A stretch of DNA of 47,937 nucleotides from Circinaria calcarea. Its lineage: Eukaryota. The stretch spans positions 1-47,937 of the forward strand of contig JAVECS010000011.1 in assembly GCA_051942165.1 (NCBI GenBank). Direction: 5' to 3'. Position numbers and translations under genes: made by a program. Positions 4,689-43,338 of this stretch are shown here, piece after piece. Numbering within the stretch: position 1 is the first letter of the stretch; every line of letters begins with the position of its first letter. Below the pieces are notes generated by a model. The model was given only the letters and a program-made list of their open reading frames with translations, had not been told where the DNA came from and searched no databases.

Positions 4689-5265
4689 TTACCACGAATT
4701 CCTATCCCAGTTTGGATCTGCCCAAGGATTAGCTCCTAATTTCCATAAGGCATGCGTAGCGATCTCCTTTGTCCCCTGACCAGCGAAAGCACTTACCCTG
4801 CACGAACCCAGCCAGAACTTTACTCCCCGTCTGCAATAGCGGGTGCCCCACCACAATCTGTAAGAACCTCTGCAGTCCCTCTCTCCGATGCTCAATCACG
4901 TCATCGCTGAATCGGTTCGTAAACACCTTCCCCGGCAGCGGTGGGATCGTTACCCTCGCGCTTTCCCTCTCCAGAATATCGCGAAAGTATTCAAAGTCCG
5001 AGTAGCGTCTCCGGACGGTGCTGTGCTTGAGTTTGAAGGCAGGGATGTTAGTGCGGCAGACGATTTCATAATCCGTATACATGCCGCGGGATGTGCCATG
5101 AGTTTGAGGATTTTTGACCTGAGAGAAGATTGGTGGGTGAGCAGGTATGGAGGAGTGTGGGGGGAAGGACTCTAGGATACGGACCTCTATCTCGAGAAAG
5201 TTTTCCGGTGGGCCATAAATCTCCTCGAAGCTTTGCTGGCGCGCGTCCGGCATGATAGCCTGCAT
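4689..5265 (-). CDS. SNX3: Sorting nexin-3 (PX domain, Grd19)
   Basis: [28 protein letters not shown]...[30 protein letters not shown]...DPNWDRNSW; introns 5119-5184 and 4718-4796. Confidence 0.95.
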
Positions 5266-5982
5266 CTTGAAAACTGATTTGAGAGCAAGACTGGCGTGTG
5301 TGTATGGAGGGACGCAACTATCGTACGGAGGTGGGGCTGCACCGGTGAGAACAGCGAGTTCACGGTTTGTAAGCTGTTTGAATGTGTCAACCTGATGGTA
5401 GCCAGGTAATTGAGTGCTGATGGCTGCTTTGCGTAAGTTGTCACTGTTGGGCGGATTGCGTGGCGGATGTCGAAAAGGCAATCGGGAATGATGTATTCAG
5501 AGGGGTTCCCAGCAGGCTTATTCTAGGGCTGTTCCACCTCGCTTAATTCTTGTCAAGGTAAAGAAAACGACCCCGGAGGCTTCTCCGTATTTATCTACTG
5601 TACATCCAGAGCTTCTGACATAACAATGACTTTCTACCGATTATTGATGATATATGATTCCTTAACAGAAGCAATGCGCTGATCAAATATGCGTCAAGGT
5701 GTCAACCCTGTAAGTAAGCCTACCCCATACACCTGCATTAATACTCTGGGGATCTTCTCTCGTTAAGTACAGCTTCCTTTCAATGGCATCAACGGAAGAT
5801 GGTTTTTTCTCAGGCAAACCAGTGTTCTCGACAGTCTCATGCAATGCGGCGAAAAGCATCGTATCGGTGCTCGTTGACGTCCCCAAATCAACCACATTCC
5901 TTAAACCTCCTGCCACCAATGACCAAATATCCATCCAATCACTCATGCGTTCTATCCGGCTCTCTCTAGTACATACCAACAA

Positions 5983-30237: not shown

Positions 30238-33200
30238 ATGGCTACCAACGGCTATGGGGGTACCCCCGGACGGAACATAGACTTGGGGAAGTAAGAAGCC
30301 GCGGTACTACTGTCTACTTTATGAATGCTGACAATGTCGAGGTCGGAGCAGGAGCTTGCGATCAACATCAGGAAAGCTACGAGTATTGGTGAGCCCAAGC
30401 TGATGAATGCCTCCGCCATTCCAGTTTAGCTAATGAAAACCACTTATAGAAGAGACCGCCCCGAAACGTCTGTCCTCTCCCTTCATATTTCACGCCAAAA
30501 GAGCTCATGAGTCTTAGGCAAACATGTTCGTGCCTGCATTGTCTACACCTGGGACCACAAATCCTCACAATCCTTCTGGGCTGGCATGAAAGTGTGCGTC
30601 TAGGAATATTCCACCCTACTAAAGCCCGCCGGCGGAAGCTTCATCTTACCTGCATTGCTAACTCATTTCATTCTTCTTCATCAGCCAGCCCATTTTAGCC
30701 GATGAGGTGCAAACATTCAAGGCCTTGATCACGATACACAAGGTTCTGCAGGAGGGCCACCCTATTGCGGTTAAAGAGGCGCAGCCGAACACAAACTGGT
30801 TGGAGAGTCTCACGAGAGGGGTATCTGGGGACGGAATCAGAGGTAAGAGCTTGTGATGAGGTTCGACCCCGGACGTCAAACGCAACCAACCGAAAAGACC
30901 TTCTCAGACCGGAGAGGAAATAACGACTACTAGGTTATGGCCCTCTACTGCGCGAGTACGTCTACTTTTTGCTGGCGAAGCTAGCCTTCCATAGACAGCA
31001 TCCTGAATTCAATGGTTAGCAAGAAATATCTATTGCCGTTAATGTCACGCTCATGTAAACCAGGCCTGTTCGAGTACGAGGAGTACATCAGTCTAAAATA
31101 CATCAACGATCCAAATGAAGGGTGAATGAGAGTATTATTACTTGAACTATCGGCCGGGGCTAATCGGTATAGATATGAAACAATTTCCGACCTGATGGCT
31201 CTCCAGGACTTGATCGACTCCTTTCAGAAACTCATCTTCTCCAACTTCCAGAGTGGATCGAATAACGAATGTAGAATATCGGCTTTGGTTCCACTGGTGC
31301 AAGAGAGTTATGGGATCTATAAATTCATCACCAGCATGCTTCGGGCAATGCATACAAGTGTGTTCTCCGTAAAGGCTCAGCAGTGTTTAGGTGCTGATTT
31401 CTCCTAGCAACTGGCGACGATGATGCATTGGAGCCTCTAAGAGGAAGATATGATACCCAATACTATCGCCTTCTCAAATTCTACTACGAATGTTCTAACC
31501 TTCGTTACCTTACCAGCTTGATTAGCGTTCCTAAGTTAGCACAGGAACCTCCAAGCCTTCTAGCGGAAGATGAGGATCGACCAGCGCTTCCACAAAGACC
31601 AAGACAGCAGACCCCAAAACCAAAGGAAGCATCCCCATCTTCGCCTAAAAAGGCTGCTGCTATTGAGCCAGAGCCAATCAATGAATTTTGGCAAGACTCA
31701 CAACGGAGGCAGCAGGAAGAGTATGATGCTCAGCAACGCAGACTGCAAGAACAGTACAACCAGCAGCAATACCAGCAACAACTAGCGCAACAGCAGGCAC
31801 AGCGAGATTTTGAAGAGCAACAACGCCTCCTGGCAGAACAGCAGAGACTAGCGGATGAACAGTTGTTGCGAGAGCAGTATCAAGCGCAGACCAGTGGTCG
31901 GATGGCAGAGTTAGAACGGGAAAATCTCAATGCTCGAGCGCAGTACGAACGTGATCAGCTCATGTTAGAGCAATATGATCGAAGGGTCAAGGACCTCGAA
32001 AATCAGTACAACCAGCTTAACAATAATTTCAACCAGCAAAATGCCTCAAAAGATGATCAAATACGTGCGCTTCAGGAGCAAGTCAACACATGGCGTTCAA
32101 AGTATGAAGCTTTAGCAAAACTGTATTCTCAGCTACGGACGGAGCACCTGGACCTGCTGCAGAAATTCAAAGGCGTACAGTTGAAGGCCGCATCGGCACA
32201 GGAGGCTATAGACAAGCGAGAGCGGCTTGAGCGGGAGATCAAGACCAAGAACCTAGAATTGGCTGACATGATCCGAGAAAGAGACCGAGCTCTACACGAG
32301 AAGGACCGTCTGACCGGTGGAAATCGAGAAGAGCTTGAAATGCTAAAGCGAGAGCTTCGACTGGCATTAGACAGAGCTGACAATGCAGAACGGTCAAAAG
32401 GGTCCGAGATATCGTCGATGCTGGCAAAGTATAACAGGGAAATGGCAGACCTCGAGGAAGCCCTAAGAGTATTTATGCTGTGGTTATGTACGCTATTACA
32501 ATTACTAACAAATCATAGAACAAGTCTCGAGCTCTGGACGATATTCACTCCAAGTATGGAGAGCGAGATGGGGACCTCGAGCGTACTTTGAGGGATAAGG
32601 AAGAGGAGCTCGAGATATCAAAGTCTGCGATGGACCAGGCGCTTTTGGAGCTGCACGAGCTACGGACTGTGGGTCTTGATCGGATCCTAAAAAGGTCGTC
32701 AGAGAGCTAATTTTCATAGACTGGTGGAGATACCGATAAGGCGCTGGACGACCAGATTGATCAGGTCTTGCTTGGGAATATACAGAAGATTAACGACATC
32801 ATTGACTCCGTCTTGCAAAGCGGTGTCCAGCGGGTGGACGATGCCCTGTATGAGTTGGATTCGACTATGCAAGCGGGGAACCAAAACGCTTCGGCGCCGT
32901 ATGTACTCTCACAAATCGAGAAAGCCTCTTCCAGCGCCACGGAGTTCTCAACCGCATTCAACAATTTTATTGCCGACGGACCTAATAGTACTCATGCAGA
33001 AATCATTCGTACTGTCAGCGTGTTTGCAGGTTCCATCGCCGACGTTCTGTCCAATACCAAAGGCCTTACCCGCTTTGCCACGGAAGAGAAGAAGGCTGAC
33101 CAGCTCGTAAGTGCCGCTCGCCAGTCTGCTCAAGCAACAGTGACCTTTTTCCGCGCCTTGCAATCTTTCCGCCTCGAGAGCCTCGAAGATGAGCAGAAAA

Positions 33201-34108
33201 CGGATGTGGTCATAAACAATAGCCACGAAGTGCAGGTAAAACTTCAAAAGCTCTCTAAACTTGCCGATGCATTTGCCCCGAAATCCGCCAAGCTGTCTAA
33301 TCAGGCTGGAAACTTGGAGGATATTGTAGATCGCGAGCTTACGAATGCCGCAAATGCAATTGAGGCTGCTGCAGAGCGCTTGAACAAAATAAAGAAAAAA
33401 CCTCGAGACGGCTACAGCACGTACGAGCTTAAGATTCATGATAGCATCGTCGAAGCTGCCATTGCTGTGACAAATGCCATCGCACGGCTTATCAAGGCCG
33501 CAACGGCTTCGCAACAAGAGATCGTAAAGGAAGGCCGTGGGTCTTCCTCTCGAACGGCTTTCTATAAAAAAAACAATCGCTGGACAGAAGGCCTGATCAG
33601 CGCTGCAAAGGCTGTCGCATCATCTACCAATACACTAATCGAGACAGCGGACGGCGTCATCAGCAGACGTAACAGTCCTGAACAGTTGATCGTAGCGAGC
33701 AACGATGTCGCAGCTTCGACAGCTCAACTCGTCGCCGCCAGCAGAGTCAAAGCTAACTTTGGCTCGAAGACCCAGGACCACCTGGAAGAGGCAAGCAAAG
33801 CTGTGGGTACGGCTTGCAGAGCGTTGGTCAGGCAGGTTCAAGAGATTATCAGCCAACGGAACAAGGATGAGGGCGATGATGTAGATTACGGCAAGTTGAG
33901 CGGGCACGAGATCAAGGTCAAGGAGTTTGAGCAGAAGGTATGCTTCTCCTTTCATGCTGTATTTACCGAGGCCATAATAGGATAGATGGTGGAAGCTTAT
34001 GCTGACGTGCGTGATACACAGGTTGAAATCTTACAGCTGGAGAACGATCTGGCGCAGGCGAGACAGCGATTAGGGGAGATGAGAAAGATTTCTTACCAAG
34101 AGGAGTGA
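30238..34108 (+). CDS. SLA2: Endocytic actin adaptor Sla2/End4 (ANTH, coiled coil, I/LWEQ); MAT flank
   Basis: INIRKATSIEETAPKRKHVRACIVYTWDH; Q-rich coiled coil; FYKKNNRWTEGLISAAKAVA; QVEILQLENDLAQARQRLGEMRKISYQEE*; many short introns. Confidence 0.97.
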
Positions 34109-35965: not shown

Positions 35966-37232
35966 TCAGAATTCGAACGAGAATGGGTCAAGATTGTTGA
36001 AGCCATCCTCATATGCGAAACCAGAGAGGTCAAACGGATTGAAGGAACTCCCCATGTAAGGGTTGAAGTCCAACTCAGTATTGAATTCCTCGCCTTCATT
36101 CAGGGAATAGTACTCATTCCCCAAAGCCAGAACTGGATTTGGTACCTGGTCGGCTAAGTTAAGGATTGGCTCCTCTCCAGAACTCTCGTTCTGACTTGTG
36201 GTCCAGGTCGTTAACATTGGGTCTGTGGACTGGTTCGCCCAAGTATCCAGATCAGTGCTGTTGACCGTAGACAACTCGTTAACCTCCGTGGACGGGCCAG
36301 TTACAGTGTCATCGAAGTTATTGTTGGTCATCTCCACGCTCTCGAAGCTGGAGTCAACAGGGAAGGGAGGAGCATCGACATCCTTGGATCCAACCTGTTG
36401 CTCAACGTCGTGTACCTGAACGTCATCATCCTGAGTACGGCCCTGCTCCAGGATGTTGTTGTCCAGGAGGTCTCCAGATTTTTGGACCGGGTTTATGATA
36501 GTAGGTCCCTGTACTCCAGTCGCCATCATCATGGCTGGCTGAAATACATCAAAATCGAGTCCTGCGCCGATGTCCATGAAGTATCCGAACTCGTATGAGT
36601 GCTGAACAATGTCTTGGACAGACAGGTTGGTTGTCAGCAAATCATAGTCAATGCTTGCGAGATCGATTTCTTCACAACGACGAAGGCTGATTTGTCCTTC
36701 TCCATCCATTGTGATCTCCCAGCCTAACATGACAAGATAATCTGCTGGGGCAACGATCCCAACAAACGGCCCGTTAATTTCCAAGAAAGCGTCGAGTGGT
36801 GCGTCTTGCTTACCAACTTTGTCACGGATGACAGAGTAGGCCTTCGCAAGGATCGTCCACTTGGCCTTGAATGGGTCGGCCGACCACAAGTAAGTTAAGA
36901 AGCCCGACTTATCTTTCTGTTGGAGAGTCGTGAAGATAGGGGCGTAGTAGCCTGCAGTGAAGTTTAGCACTGATCATTATAGCTGCTGTGTTATACATAC
37001 TTCGGAAAGCCATCCAAGAGTTGAGCGGCCTAGTTGCCTTGGCCTTGACAGCAACGGTCATAATCTTCTTGGTGACACCCTTGGATGATTTGGTATGCTC
37101 ACCACCGCTGAAATCTCCGCCGACGTAAGCCGCGGATTGCGCCATCTCCGCGATTTGCGCAGGAGAGTAAGCAGCAAGGAGTTGCTGGAATGCTTTCGGC
37201 ACGAACATCGGCTGTTCGTTAGTCTTGGTCAT
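35966..37232 (-). CDS. MAT1-1-1: Mating-type alpha-box transcription factor MAT1-1-1
   Basis: Alpha box RPLNSWMAFR-S-YYAPIFTTLQQKDKSGFLTYLWSADPFKAKWTILAKAYSVIRD, with the conserved phase-1 intron 36952-37000 in the Ser codon; acidic C-terminus. Start is ATG 37232 or 37208. Confidence 0.96.
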
Positions 37233-37614
37233 TAGGAATTGGTCTAAAGATGCTCTGTACAATGGAAACTGAGGCTGCGGTCGCGAAAAAGGTGTGCTTC
37301 AATTATGAAAAGACTAAGTTGAGAAATGAAGAGGTGTAGAAGAGTTGGAAATCGAGATTCGTCGTTGGATTTAAATCATAATGGAGTGGCTGGGAATTCC
37401 CTTTTCCGATAAACAAAGACCGAGCTAAGTTCATTCACTGATCTACTAGACTGTTTGTGTCACATCCTAGCAACAGCTAGTTTTTTATGTGGTTGCATGT
37501 TTACTTGGTTTGGTTCTGGTCTAGGTAGTTTCTGCTCAAGTTGGACTTTTGTTTGTATATCTAATTCTGCTACCTATCGCTTCTCCCATCTCTTTTAATC
37601 ACTTCGCTTTGATG

Positions 37615-38968
37615 CTATGTATCTCGGCCCTGACGACGGTGCTGTACGAATATGACTGGAGGATTGTTAAATCTTGGAATACGTATCCGTGGTCTTTGTA
37701 CGAAACCTGAAAGATGATTATTAGATTTCAAGCGCGGTTGTTGAGTAACGCCCTAGTCTTACCAGAGTCCTGATTCAGTTCTTCTAAGCTTGGCATACCA
37801 TTTCTCAAGAAATTGGAGTTATCCTACTAACTCTTAGCTCCGACAAAAGTATATTTCTGACAGCCCGTACTGAGGTGATGGTATTTGGACTAGGGGCAAT
37901 GCGGCCCTGGCATCTTGTAAGTCAGGTCTCGTGGTTGGAGTGTTTGCAACCTTACCGGCCAACAAATGCGACGCACTCCAGGGTATATGCCTAGGTTTAC
38001 CTAAGCCCTAAGTAAGTATACCATATTTAGAAAGTGGTTATGTTTCGTACTATCTCCGAAAACTGACATTGGTCCTGGATACAGATTAGCCTCAATTACA
38101 ACATAAAAGGGATTGCCCCCACCACAGGTTTACTGACCATTCCAAGTTCTCGACAGGCTGCATTGTTTTCTTGCAACCAATTGGATAGAAGCTGACATCC
38201 TGCGAACGGCACAATCTGTAAATAACCTCCACGGGGTGGGAGTTGCGGCATCGATGATGTGTCAACACCGCTTCCGGGAGCTCCTTTTTGAAAAAATTGA
38301 TTCCAAGGTTTTTGGTGTTCGTCAAAACCTGGGCGATCCTTTTGCGCCATACGGTGAGTCCGGGACTTATGAAGTTCATGCTCATGCTGGTCAATCTCTT
38401 CTAGGTGTTTATTGAGCGCATCCATTTGCTGACAACAACATTTGATCCCCCTGAAAAACTCCTCCCTGGTGTTGTCGTCCGGAAACAGGTCGGGATGACC
38501 TTCGAGTCGCACGAACTCGTAGTAGATGGTGTTCAAGACTTTATCTAAGGTCGTGGTATCTTGCTTTTCTTGTCTTGAGGCACATACTCTGAGCACTCTT
38601 TTGAGGTCGTACAAGATCATTTGTAGGAAAGCAGAGCTGCAAGGCACGGTCATCTCGGTGATGTCTAGAAGCGTTAGCTGTGGAGACAATCATAAAAAGC
38701 AATGATCCATGCTACCTCCAATTTTGCCCTTGTCAAAGTCCGCATAATCCGTGTAAGCACATGTTGCTTTGAGCTTACTATACGGTGCATCCTCGCTGCT
38801 ACTGGATGAGCTCTGGGAGACGGTTTCCCAAGAATCGCTGTCTTCTCGGTCTGCCATTTCACGGTTTAACTCCACAGTGTCCATTCTGATAGCAATGGAG
38901 TCGAGTTGGCAAGATGAAGGTTTGTAGTTTTTGCTGTTAATTTGTGGTAGCAAACTTGTAATCTTCAT
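37615..38968 (-). CDS. Auxiliary MAT1-1 idiomorph gene (MAT1-1-7-like by position), ~308-336 aa, 7 exons
   Basis: Exons 38716-38968, 38138-38664, 38068-38074, 37956-37990, 37871-37906, 37763-37823, 37615-37706 join into a 1011-nt open frame with GT-AG introns of 47-77 nt. It lies directly upstream of, and co-oriented with, MAT1-1-1. TATAAA at 38994-38999 may favour ATG 38884. Confidence 0.75.
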
Positions 38969-39012
38969 AAACTGTCACTAAACCGTTGTGTTGTTTATAG
39001 AACTCTATTAGT

Positions 39013-39591
39013 CTAGTGGCATTCACTGGCTAATCCATTATTCAAAGGGTAACACTCGAATTTTCGTTGCGAGTAGGGTTCTCGGGATACTGTAGCGCCA
39101 GATCCTAATGTAATCTTACAAGAAAAACTTTAGACATTCACCTTCTTGGCTTACCTTTTCTATCGCTAACCTCTTGACTAGTTTCAACGTCGACAGGTAT
39201 GATCTTAATCATCTCAACTCTTCCATCTCCTATTGTTTGATAATCAACCACCGAGCTCAGAAGTAAGAGTCTGCTGCTGGGCGTGCAATGGAGGGCACGG
39301 AGTGCAATGAAAGAAAGCTGGCAACCTGGTTTAAGGATACCGACTCCGGATGCTGTATGCTCCATTCCCAAGAGATGCTGAAAGAACTTCTCAAGCGCTA
39401 TTTGAGTTGTCGTATAAACTAGGGGATAAATTTTAGTCATTCAATTTCCATGCACCCCTTTTACCGTCACAAGGAAAGGTCTAAATCCTGAACTTTAGTA
39501 TCCTACTGCTTTTCTTAGGAATATTGCGTACATCGCCCAGCACCCAGCAGGGTGCTATAAAGACGGCCCAGCTAAGATATTCATACATCAT
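39013..39591 (-). CDS. Putative third idiomorph gene, ~143 aa, orphan (tentative 4-exon model)
   Basis: Exons 39532-39591, 39465-39480, 39155-39418, 39013-39104. The 264-nt middle exon is stop-free and flanked by GACTAA..CTAG and GTAAGC. Confidence 0.4.
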
Positions 39592-41031
39592 AGAAGATCA
39601 TTCCTAATCCTCTCTAGTTCATGTGAGTATCACAGAGTTGAAGATGTCAGAGTTGACATATCCACTTGTAATAATAGGCTTTTTCTCCCGTCCCCACGGA
39701 GTCAAAGAGCTGGCGGGCTGATCGGATACACAATATATGTGATCGCACGTGGTAGTCTCTGGTAAGCATAACCATCATCGCAATTGGGTATTGGGGACCA
39801 TTGGATGCGGAAGATAGATCAGGAGTGCATCCAACACTTGGTCTATAGTCGTACAGGGCGACAAGCCAATGGGTCTGTCGACACAAGTTAAGAAGTGTCA
39901 ATCCTAGGCTCAATAGAAACCACAATCCCTTCCAAACCGGAATGCCATCTCCAGTAGCAGCGACCGGCCCCAATCTGGAGGAGTTATACCGGTTGAAACA
40001 CACCACTTAGTCTGGCTTTCAATGAATCGGACAATGGTGGGAAAAGGAAGAACGATGGTACGTGGATGGATATCGAGTCTTTTCTGTCTGGCCTTCACTG
40101 CACGAGTTGACCAAACAATTTTTTACCTCCTCCCTTTCGCACCAATATATACAGTACCAACTTCCCTAATTCAAGCACATACTTGTTTTGCGCACGCACA
40201 TAGAACAGGGTTGCTGGACAGATTTTTGAGGAACCCCCTCGGCGGTCAGGATAGGAACACAGGGCAAATCTTCTAGATTGCAAAACAGAAAATGCAACTA
40301 GTTGAACGTCAAAGTCTCATGCTTCCTTTTCGTCTACGTGGTTGATATATCTCAAATCCAAATGTCTCATTGTCTTAGATCCAGCCATGTAAACAAAGGA
40401 AAAAACAAACACATTCCTCCCAACTTTTCCCGGGAATTCCAAATTCCCCACATCCCCGAGCCGACTAGCACATCGAACCCCTAACAAAGAAAAGAGGTGG
40501 CTGGTCCTTCCAGCCATTCTTCCTTCGACTCCACCGCTGGAACCCTCTCCTTGTACAGCTCAGCACATCCGATCCACCAAACCGCGCTAGCGACAGATCG
40601 GGCATTCGCCCCAACCTCTCCCTTTCTTCCCATCCAGCATCGCGATGAACACCGAAACGTGGTCTCGGATGGTATGACCCTCTGAAACAGGTGCGCTAAG
40701 ATGGGATGGGAAGCTTTACCACCCTCCACATGGGGACTTTCACCCTTACCTCCATGTGCGCAGGTTTGACTGGGGGATGGAAGGTTCAGGGGGGATGTAC
40801 CAAGATCACGTGGGGTAGAGGGCGCGCAAAGGAATTAGGGTCACGAGAAACAGTGTAGCAATAGGTGTTGCCTCTGCATTGGTCGCTCGTAGTCTAAATC
40901 TTAAGCTAGCTGGGAGATGTTCAAAGTGCATAGTATTTACCACCATATCCCTTCCCGTGGCCCGACTCCCCTCTCGGCCCACACAGATCTTTATCTTCCT
41001 CAAACGACTCCAAACTCATCTACGAGAATAT

Positions 41032-43338
41032 CTACGTGAACCCGGGATTCCAATCGCTACACCATATAAACGTCTGACACCTCCACTGTGTGTTTCTCTC
41101 CTTCGCCCCAGTTGGGCCCAAGGGTCGGGCACACATCCAGAAGGATCTGCCGCAATTCATCCCACTTTTCTTCGTGAGCATGCTGACACAAGGTTCCTGG
41201 TGACCTTCGCAACGAGGCGCGACGGGTTTGGAGAAGAGTTTGGACCAGGACTCTTTAGACTCGATGGGATCATGAACGTCTGCTTGGAGATCGGTGCTGG
41301 CCATGTTGGTCGGGACAGGAGAGACCTCGGTGGACTCAGAGAATGCGAGGTCATTTCGCTTGTCGTGAAGAGGCGTTGTCGTACCTGGGAGCGTTGATGA
41401 CTCCATGCTTTCTTCTGCTTCCTGTGCAACAGTTGGGCTTCCGACGGTTTCCGGAGATGACTGCCACGAGGTTTGTAAATCTGTTGATGCTACATCTGGT
41501 AAACCGTTTTCGTTGGTTGCTGCTCCCTTCGACTTGAAGAAGCCCTTGAGACTTTGCTGTCCTTTACCTGAGGCAGTTGGGCCCGGAGCAGAAGATCCAG
41601 ATTTCACGCGCTTGAATGATCTGGGGACGGATTTCTCGGGTAATTGTCTTTTCTTAATCAGTGATGATGTGGAAGGAGTGGCAGCGACTATCGAAGAGAC
41701 AGTTGACTCGGGTGAAGGCGGCCGTGCATCCTGGTTGATAGGAGACACTGAGACGGTAACGGCCAAGCTTGATGGTAGGGAGCCTTCTTCCAACGCACAC
41801 CCCTCGGTAGAATCGGTAATCTTTTGTTCTTCGGGCGTCGGACTATCCACGTTCGTGCTCGATTCAGCTGTGAGTGTAGGCTTACGCGTGAACATATCCC
41901 GGATGCTTTGTCGGCGATCGAATTCAGGTATAAGCCTTCCCGATAGAGGCAAGATGTCCTTCACAGAATATTCTCTCATCCGCTTTCCATTACGAAATGT
42001 GCCTTTGGGGTTCATAACGTCTTTAATATGAACTTCGTTGTTATCCATAACAATTCGATCCTTCGTTGTGGCAAATACTGGACAGTGATCAGATCCCTAG
42101 TCTAATGTTAGCAATCACAAGTGGAGAGTCGCCATGACGCGGCTGACCAGCAATCCTTCCTGGATATTCGAGTCCAAGAACCAATCCTTCATGTCGAGGC
42201 TACATAGCACATAGTCGATCCTTGAGCCAAAGTTTCCTGGTCGGGCATTGACTTTCTGCTCCCAGCACGTGAACATTCCCTTCCGCAGAGGATGGAAGCC
42301 TCGACAAATGTCCCACATGACTGGCTTCTCCCTTCCCCGATCTCTGTCCCCGTAGATCTTGCCGTCATCGAGAAGATGGTTGAAGAGACGTCGTGCGGGC
42401 GTTGAAAAGTACTCCATCTCTGTCATGCTGTTCTTCCGCATGGCAGCCTCTGCATTGGCTGTGTCAAGTTTTTCCTTGGAGATATTAAGATCTCCTGTCA
42501 AGATCACCCGTTTGCCCATGGCTACGAGATTGCGAACTCGAAAGTCCAATAGATTGAGGAACCCGAGACGGAACTCATCTCGTGTCTCATCGCGATTTGC
42601 TGGGCTATATACGCCTATCAGGACAAAGGCTGGGAATTCGAGTATCACACAGCGGCCTTCGGAGTCCAGAACAGCAAGGTCAACCGTCGGATTTCCCAAC
42701 TCAGAAACCTGGTCGCTTGTCGGATATCCACCAATTCGGGCGTTCTGTGGAAGCTCGGAGAAGCTCAGAGACGAGTTGGGCGGAGATAGTATGCCGGTAA
42801 TTCCTTCCTCTGCACGGATTGGACAGCAAACTGCCTGTCGAGTATAGATTACGACGCCGGAATACCCTACGGGCTCTCAGTAGCCGCAATGGAGATATGG
42901 CTGTCTTACTCGGGCACCTTTCTTGTGTTTTGGCAAGCTGAAAAAGCAGTCCCAGCCTGGCACCAGAACCATATCATCCCGCAGGTCCTTGCGCTGTATC
43001 TTTGTTTCCTGAAAGACTACAATGTCCGCTTCGAGAATGTCGAACATTGCCTGCTCGGCCATCAGCATTGAATCGGAGGTGATCTTTGGCCGCACGAGCA
43101 CTAACCGCGAACGTTCGCTTGTCTTGCCATGGCTGATAGGAAAAGGGATTTCTGAGCCATGATTCTCAGCAAAAACTACAATGGGCTCGAATGAAACAAA
43201 GTCCGATCTGGAGCCTTCTGAGAAAACATAGGGCGGAGTGACGCGTACCGTATGCCGTTGACTGTAGCAAAATCAGCAACAACGCCTTTAATGTTGGGGA
43301 TGGTCCGTACCGTTCCATGTAGTTATACGAAATGGCAT
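41032..43338 (-). CDS. APN2: AP endonuclease 2 (DNA lyase); MAT flank
   Basis: MPFRITTWNVNGIRNPF; DIVVFQETKIQRKDL; LDSEGRCVILEF; GDLN; GSRIDYVLCS; GSDHCPV; PIP-like QQSLKGFF; zf-GRF CEGHQEPC...FWMCARP...CQTFIW. Confidence 0.97.

Follow-up and report, generated by a model that had tools for sequence, protein, structure and literature searches.

A possible accessory gene at the MAT1-1 mating-type locus of the lichen fungus Circinaria calcarea

Results

The window analysed here, a 47,937-nt stretch of DNA from the lichen fungus Circinaria calcarea, holds a MAT1-1 mating-type locus. Its genes run in the order APN2 (minus strand, stop at 41032), spacer, orphan ORF, auxiliary gene, MAT1-1-1 and SLA2 (plus strand); the accessible portions of two papers give the same gene order for lichen MAT1-1 loci (bioRxiv 2020.12.18.423428; PMC11515122). 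MAT1-1-1 lies at 35966..37232 on the minus strand, encodes an alpha box (PF04769, E 3e-32) and has one intron (37000-36952). The minus-strand flanking gene at 41032..43338 we take to be APN2 from its translation, its position and the C-terminal GRF zinc finger of its copy on contig C1956; the plus-strand flanking gene at 30238..34108 is, by translation and position, presumably SLA2. The alpha box, the searched part of APN2 (41500-42093) and the searched part of SLA2 each match once in the assembly.

A conserved auxiliary gene lies next to the orphan ORF on the same strand. It occupies the MAT1-1-7 position at 38096..38884 (minus), with exon 1 at 38884-38716, exon 2 from 38664 and an intron (38715-38665) that scores 8.7 bits in a gene finder that was self-trained on 400 kb drawn from ten further contigs of this assembly. 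That training set comprised 84 long ORFs and 138 introns, some of the introns being false, and the starting matrices followed a general fungal consensus. The 3' end of the auxiliary gene is uncertain; the gene probably continues beyond 38096, where its stop is placed. At 38137, about where the conserved block of the gene's relatives stops, lies a very strong intron start (11.2 bits; window 38137-37599). A close relative's protein (P0005), on a 5,350-base contig, is 75% identical to the auxiliary gene.

Elsewhere at the locus, the motif TTTGTTTA, forkhead-like as we take it, lies beside a GGGAA/TTCCC-rich stretch on the minus strand at two places: 40450-40385, in the flank shared with C1956, and 37425-37390, upstream of MAT1-1-1. 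C1956 retains the flank copy. Rfam returned nothing at E<=1 across 37200-41100.

The orphan ORF probably lies in the MAT1-1-only part of the locus. When 38900-41100 was compared as DNA with the assembly, a single further place matched: contig C1956, which bears an HMG box. C1956 matches the window at 86% over 41513-40092 (minus strand; the APN2 3' end and downstream spacer) and then diverges, with the end of MAT1-2-1 206 nt further on. By this comparison the APN2-side idiomorph boundary is at about 40092, which puts the orphan ORF (39591-39013) 500-1080 nt inside it, on the MAT1-1 side, between APN2 and SLA2. The ORF is single-copy in the assembly, and neither blastn nor tblastn matched it on C1956, the one MAT1-2 copy examined and apparently a displaced one. 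Because the shared flank ends at 40092 and C1956 lacks the ORF, we place it inside the MAT1-1 idiomorph. Mating-type linkage and idiomorph specificity, both proposed in a preliminary description of this DNA, were thereby upheld against that single MAT1-2 copy. The same comparison ruled out a remnant of MAT1-2-1 or MAT1-2-14, and the assembly searches ruled out a repeat or second copy. By position the orphan is placed as an auxiliary MAT gene would be: inside one idiomorph and absent from the examined copy of the other; its frame is intact and its introns are canonical.

Four minus-strand exons join into one open frame. Together they span 432 nt and encode 143 aa with 6 Cys, which reproduces the splice model first proposed. 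Exon 1 (39532..39591) starts ATG ATG, the gene finder favouring the second ATG (39588), and gives a moderately hydrophobic N-terminus. Exon 2 (39465..39480) is a 16-nt micro-exon required for frame, exon 3 (39155..39418) supplies 264 nt with a coding score of about +6 bits, and exon 4 (39013..39104), which ends in the stop, is the weakest at -5.2 bits. The introns measure 51 nt (39481..39531; GTACGC / TACTAAA / TAG, 8.9 bits, GC 0.35), 46 nt (39419..39464; GTAAAA / GACTAAA / TAG, 5.7 bits, GC 0.37) and 50 nt (39105..39154; GTAAGC donor, TAG acceptor). The CTAA-type branch sites claimed earlier are present in all three as CTAAA, a rarer type found in 7/138 of the self-trained introns. The last acceptor is ambiguous, as had been pointed out: position 39105 scores 6.0 bits, 39115 scores 5.4, 39081 scores 2.8 and 39090 scores 2.6, and use of 39115 would give a different C-terminus (138 aa, 4 Cys).

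Part of this frame already has a deposited model. The 100-aa hypothetical protein P0002, presumably itself a prediction, runs from an internal Met of exon 3 (39365) through exon 4, with the same last intron and acceptor 39105. The preliminary description had called the gene unannotated, which is correct for exons 1-2, missing from this deposited model, and incorrect for exons 3-4.

The orphan frame shows no sign of belonging to a longer gene. The earlier suggestion of a longer gene in decay, of which it would be the 3' part, finds no support: two in-frame stops lie at most 6 codons upstream of the ATG, an upstream 119-codon ORF scores -10.2 bits, and no frame carries sustained coding signal at 40090-39600. 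A candidate 5'-UTR intron (39614..39665, minus, 52 nt; GTGGAT / TACTCAC / TAG, 5.0 bits) brings no in-frame extension of the ORF. At the other end, a TATAAA (38994..38999, minus), putatively a promoter or poly(A) element, lies 13 nt past the orphan stop, where about 15 bp had been stated, and about 110 nt ahead of the auxiliary-gene ATG. With the stop so close to the TATAAA, an orphan transcript must overlap the putative auxiliary-gene promoter, and the anatomy suggests that an effect in cis on the auxiliary gene would be its most concrete activity.

The splice sites could be real and the protein unselected. The exons would then be remains of an old, decaying accessory gene, or else belong, as a spliced leader or uORF, to a long transcript that continues into the auxiliary gene and damps its expression. 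The gap of 13 nt leaves no space for a separate 3' UTR, which argues for such a reading, as do the intron-like signals that continue past the frame, upstream in the candidate 5'-UTR intron and weakly across the TATA (39026-38972, 1.6 bits). The coding score is weak: exon 3 resembles the auxiliary-gene blocks (10.8 and 6.9 bits) but its score is reached by 21/159 background ORFs. TpA/ApT stands at 0.95 in the orphan stretch against 0.59-0.75 in neighbouring stretches and the window, and a comparable ORF of Letharia, lorf, is described as pseudogenising in the part of the source available (bioRxiv 2020.12.18.423428). On the other side, the frame stays intact over four exons and three junctions, one of which needs the micro-exon, and no top single-gene model reads on from the orphan into the auxiliary gene in one frame; the single model that does fuse them needs a 3-nt exon. 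We regard a structure without protein function as rather unlikely.

The exons and introns very probably form a real spliced structure, whether working or decayed. Introns 1, 2 and 3 outscore 61%, 25% and 27% of the 138 introns used in training, and 0.6%, 3.4% and 2.8% of 10,960 decoys reach their scores. Across 38900-41030 the orphan model from the second ATG is the best single-gene model on splice signals alone and at a coding weight of 0.3; exons 1-3 appear in all top models at every weight, and at higher weights the 3' end shifts. The chance test used the 1191-nt idiomorph stretch and its top model of 100 aa or more, scored on signals only or with a coding term. The orphan score was reached by 2/150 dinucleotide shuffles on signals only and 1/150 with the coding term, and by 0/150 and 1/150 trinucleotide shuffles, in a comparison biased in favour of the observed sequence because shuffling erases natural compositional patchiness. 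A second set of 600 shuffles yielded a model with three exons or more in 410 cases; 4 matched the score, 5 matched the GC contrast of 0.13 and none matched both. The gene-like structure first described thus exceeds shuffle expectation. GC content is 45-50% in the exons and 32-37% in the introns (Fisher p 0.012; contrast reached by 5/410 shuffled models), a difference far above that of the training introns (0.465 vs 0.495) and hence atypical of this genome.

Chance assembly of the frame is unlikely. A neutral idiomorph spacer could hold three passable splice-like pairs that happen to join an open frame; introns 2 and 3 rank low among the training introns, and signals of their grade occur 1.3-1.6 times per kb of background. 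Real background pieces without long ORFs reached the orphan score in 5/58 cases on signals only and 7/58 with the coding term, some of these pieces probably being real small-exon genes, and the orphan stretch had been picked by the preliminary description out of a 48-kb window. Lack of a homologue in all that was searched also suits a neutral spacer. Against it stand the 0/600 shuffles that match both splice score and GC contrast, a score of -9.7 for the opposite strand of the stretch, and P0002, in which an independent predictor called part of the same structure.

The predicted product is a small acidic protein of 15.9 kDa and pI 5.5, with Cys at 15, 24, 58, 70, 131 and 142. A core MAT factor (MAT1-1-1, MAT1-1-3 or MAT1-2-1) was considered and rejected: the product carries neither alpha box nor HMG box, nor any other known domain, and so is not a mating-type transcription factor. 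Pfam assigned no family to exon 3, P0002 or the upstream ORFs, with nothing at E<=1 for exon 3 and P0002. A single-sequence AlphaFold model of P0002 reached a pLDDT of 34.5, which is uninformative and would also sit with chance.

Secretion of the product is a weakly supported possibility. The preliminary description had likened the N-terminus to a signal peptide. Its hydropathy peaks at 1.82 over 12 residues, a value reached by 38/753 background Met-ORFs (5%) and 8/90 strong gene models. A putative cleavage after G19, before D20, would have Pro at -6 and Val/Gly at -3/-1, a pattern that fits a signal peptide but does not discriminate in background. For the likeness stand the hydrophobic stretch and the -3/-1 fit; against it stand the missing basic n-region, a short h-region that holds W, P and C, and the odd five Cys that would remain once Cys15 left with the signal peptide (three with acceptor 39115). 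A functional small Cys protein, secreted or displayed on the cell surface, produced by MAT1-1 nuclei only and acting in partner recognition or apothecium development, would suit an idiomorph-specific ORF, but P0002 lacks this N-terminus and 9 related MAT1-1 spacers, four of them roomy enough once the short spacers of the L015 and L020 type are set aside, hold no counterpart, and we consider it quite improbable.

No homologue of the orphan emerged from the protein databases and related loci searched. A search of 5.8 billion proteins returned its own P0002 alone among 8 candidates and none among 441 longer candidates. Searching 1.84 billion representatives with phmmer returned P0002 and two tandem-repeat proteins, P0003 and P0004, rejected as repeat artefacts built from 13 and 8 summed stretches. 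ESM Atlas gave no usable match, its recognition value (1246, against 1310 for the conserved auxiliary gene) being uninformative, and a metagenome scan with exon 3 gave 587 pattern matches, 0 of them confirmed. The literature searched, with most subscription papers outside its scope, held no report of the ORF.

Related MAT loci place a loose bound on the orphan's range. A scan with the APN2 C-terminus yielded 55 loci, or 56 with C1956, of which 26 hold relatives of the auxiliary gene at 22-30% identity. The best orphan match in the same 56 loci had E 2.2, all 55 APN2 loci being distant. Neither tblastx nor blastn on 21 and 9 hand-picked related MAT spacers gave an orphan match beyond chance. 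The gene finder, trained on a different species, returned no orphan-like model in 9 related MAT1-1 spacers (best same-strand non-auxiliary model -1.8), and the APN2-side spacer is under 500 nt in one group of loci (L015, L016, L020, L023). A tBLASTn comparison, as proposed in the preliminary description, gave no match on the MAT1-2 copy and none beyond chance in these distant loci. Because these loci are so distant, "lineage-restricted" can be bounded only loosely, and absence in relatives cannot refute a fast-evolving gene. An auxiliary-gene paralogue was rejected: a profile built from 18 positional auxiliary-gene sequences gives the orphan -2.1 bits.

Several related loci have arrangements of their own. 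The metagenome loci L035 and L037 (8226-13531) carry both idiomorphs in line: beyond APN2 come MAT1-2-1 and a MAT1-2-14-like gene, then the auxiliary MAT1-1 gene and MAT1-1-1, which makes a linked homothallic locus in a lichen-type fungus. Auxiliary-gene copies in a near-identical group (L025, L028, L030, L069) differ at conserved positions, L030 with in-frame stops, and the gene is possibly decaying in some of them. Three more distant loci (L047, L051, L066) share by tblastx a conserved gene in the APN2-side spacer that is missing at that position in the window. In L051 and L055 the auxiliary-gene homologue points the opposite way to MAT1-1-1 and APN2, an inversion that the window and most of the other loci do not show.

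The same assembly holds both mating types. The MAT1-2 cassette occupies C1956:1-5298 (L070), with an intact MAT1-2-1 model of four exons and about 375 aa at 3353-2089 (minus) and an open gene in the MAT1-2-14 position from 3711 (plus). Of APN2 it retains the last 483 nt alone, from about 478, with a premature stop; this relic carries 21 C>T among 43 changes, with dS 0.22 and dN/dS 0.29. On its upstream side, a 3-nt microhomology marks where the relic is fused mid-ORF to a repeat ORF (C1956:1-480) that has a weak NDC10_II match (E 0.001, below the cut-off) and is presumably Crypton-like. Copies of that ORF at 79-89% lie on other contigs (L116 = C920:310-804; L117), the C920 copy with stops. The other end of C1956 also runs into assembly repeats, a repeat of about 300 nt at 5000-5298 with dozens of copies at 78-99% identity (47 matches among the 40/222 candidates scored). 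No SLA2 remnant was seen on C1956.

Discussion

The locus holds, within the idiomorph and ahead of its conserved auxiliary gene, a third ORF that has splice signals and no detectable homologue. Our preferred reading, to which we give slightly less than an even chance, is a real, lineage-restricted, weakly constrained and dispensable accessory gene of the MAT1-1 idiomorph, of the kind called lorf in Letharia. Minus-strand transcription would start from a promoter in 40090-39600, three short introns would be spliced, and translation would yield an acidic protein of about 16 kDa. The gene would be young, having arisen, or diverged past recognition, in this lineage. Idiomorphs do not recombine with each other, so the orphan would stay linked to MAT1-1 by that alone and not necessarily by a mating role. 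It would be dispensable, its likeliest effect on the locus being in cis, through a 3' end that would run into the auxiliary-gene promoter. P0002 bears on this reading in both directions: its use of the same last intron is independent support, and its lack of exons 1-2 counts against. Also counting against this reading are the weak coding signal, matched for exon 3 in background ORFs and negative for exon 4, the atypical GC contrast, and the background pieces that reach its score.

The closest described parallel is Letharia lorf, which is weakly expressed and lies just downstream of APN2, according to the accessible part of bioRxiv 2020.12.18.423428. Both are small, weakly predicted ORFs of lichen-forming fungi, placed after the end of APN2 and ahead of the MAT genes (bioRxiv 2020.12.18.423428 / PMC10512270, as far as available). 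MAT1-1 copies of lorf have two possible start codons and the orphan begins ATG ATG, the available text not stating whether the lorf codons are adjacent. The two differ in place: lorf sits at the border of flank and idiomorph beside both idiomorphs (about 96% alike), whereas the orphan lies well inside MAT1-1 and is absent from the MAT1-2 copy. The likeness drawn here is one of position and description.

An accessory gene of this sort would join a known class. Domain-less, taxonomically narrow, idiomorph-specific ORFs include MAT1-2-14, MAT1-1 auxiliary genes of Leptogium and Dibaeis, and Aspergillus MAT1-2-4, in the portions available of bioRxiv 2020.12.18.423428, PMC6414310 and PMC6231087. 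In sequence the orphan is not similar to the gene at the MAT1-2-14 position of C1956. In Leptogium and Dibaeis these genes sit between MAT1-1-1 and SLA2, according to the available part of bioRxiv 2020.12.18.423428, unlike the orphan, which is on the APN2 side. MAT1-1-7 (= MAT1-1-4 or MAT1-1-9), the conserved auxiliary gene of Lecanoromycetes and Eurotiomycetes, shares with the orphan its idiomorph, strand and domain-less accessory type, but the neighbour at 38884-38096 fills that role and the orphan does not fit its profile.

The cassette on C1956 suggests a translocated second MAT locus, and with it homothallism by translocation. Intact MAT genes, a truncated and stop-bearing APN2 relic, repeats on both sides, and single matches for the alpha box and the searched parts of APN2 and SLA2 all fit that arrangement. 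The high dS with low dN/dS of the APN2 relic could also point to a diverged lineage as the origin of the cassette, or the cassette may belong to a second strain, the source being a metagenome-assembled lichen genome. In A. fischeri, a disabled remnant of a flanking gene lies beside the moved locus. Such remnants are reported for homothallic aspergilli in the accessible part of PMC6231087. In the same source, A. fischeri and A. pseudoglaucus have both idiomorphs in a single assembly, where APN2 and SLA2 flank the one and the second lies at another place, the pattern seen here with C1956. Unlike in those aspergilli, it is MAT1-1 that still occupies the ancestral site here, repeats bound the moved cassette, no remnant of SLA2 was seen, and the source is metagenome-assembled.

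Lichen MAT1-1 is described as MAT1-1-1 plus one auxiliary gene in the parts available of bioRxiv 2020.12.18.423428, PMC6414310 and PMC11515122. A third idiomorph-specific gene, if true, would mean that lichen idiomorphs gain lineage-specific genes, like some other ascomycete groups. A secreted product would also be out of the ordinary among MAT loci of filamentous ascomycetes. If that reading held, it would place a mating-type-encoded extracellular protein in a self-fertile member of the Lecanoromycetes, a class reported as almost wholly heterothallic: 39/39 Lecanoromycete genomes of one survey, in the part available of PMC6414310, with a few Teloschistaceae named as exceptions (White et al. 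as cited in the available part of PMC11515122). The full combination, a functional third MAT1-1-specific gene for a secreted or surface protein without known relative, in a self-fertile lichen fungus with a repeat-bounded, translocated and intact MAT1-2 cassette, strikes us as very improbable. As a weakly constrained orphan, the ORF would be of modest interest, and the side finding on C1956 may be the more important one: if an intact MAT1-2 cassette has indeed moved beside repeats, the fungus would be an instance of primary homothallism through translocation.
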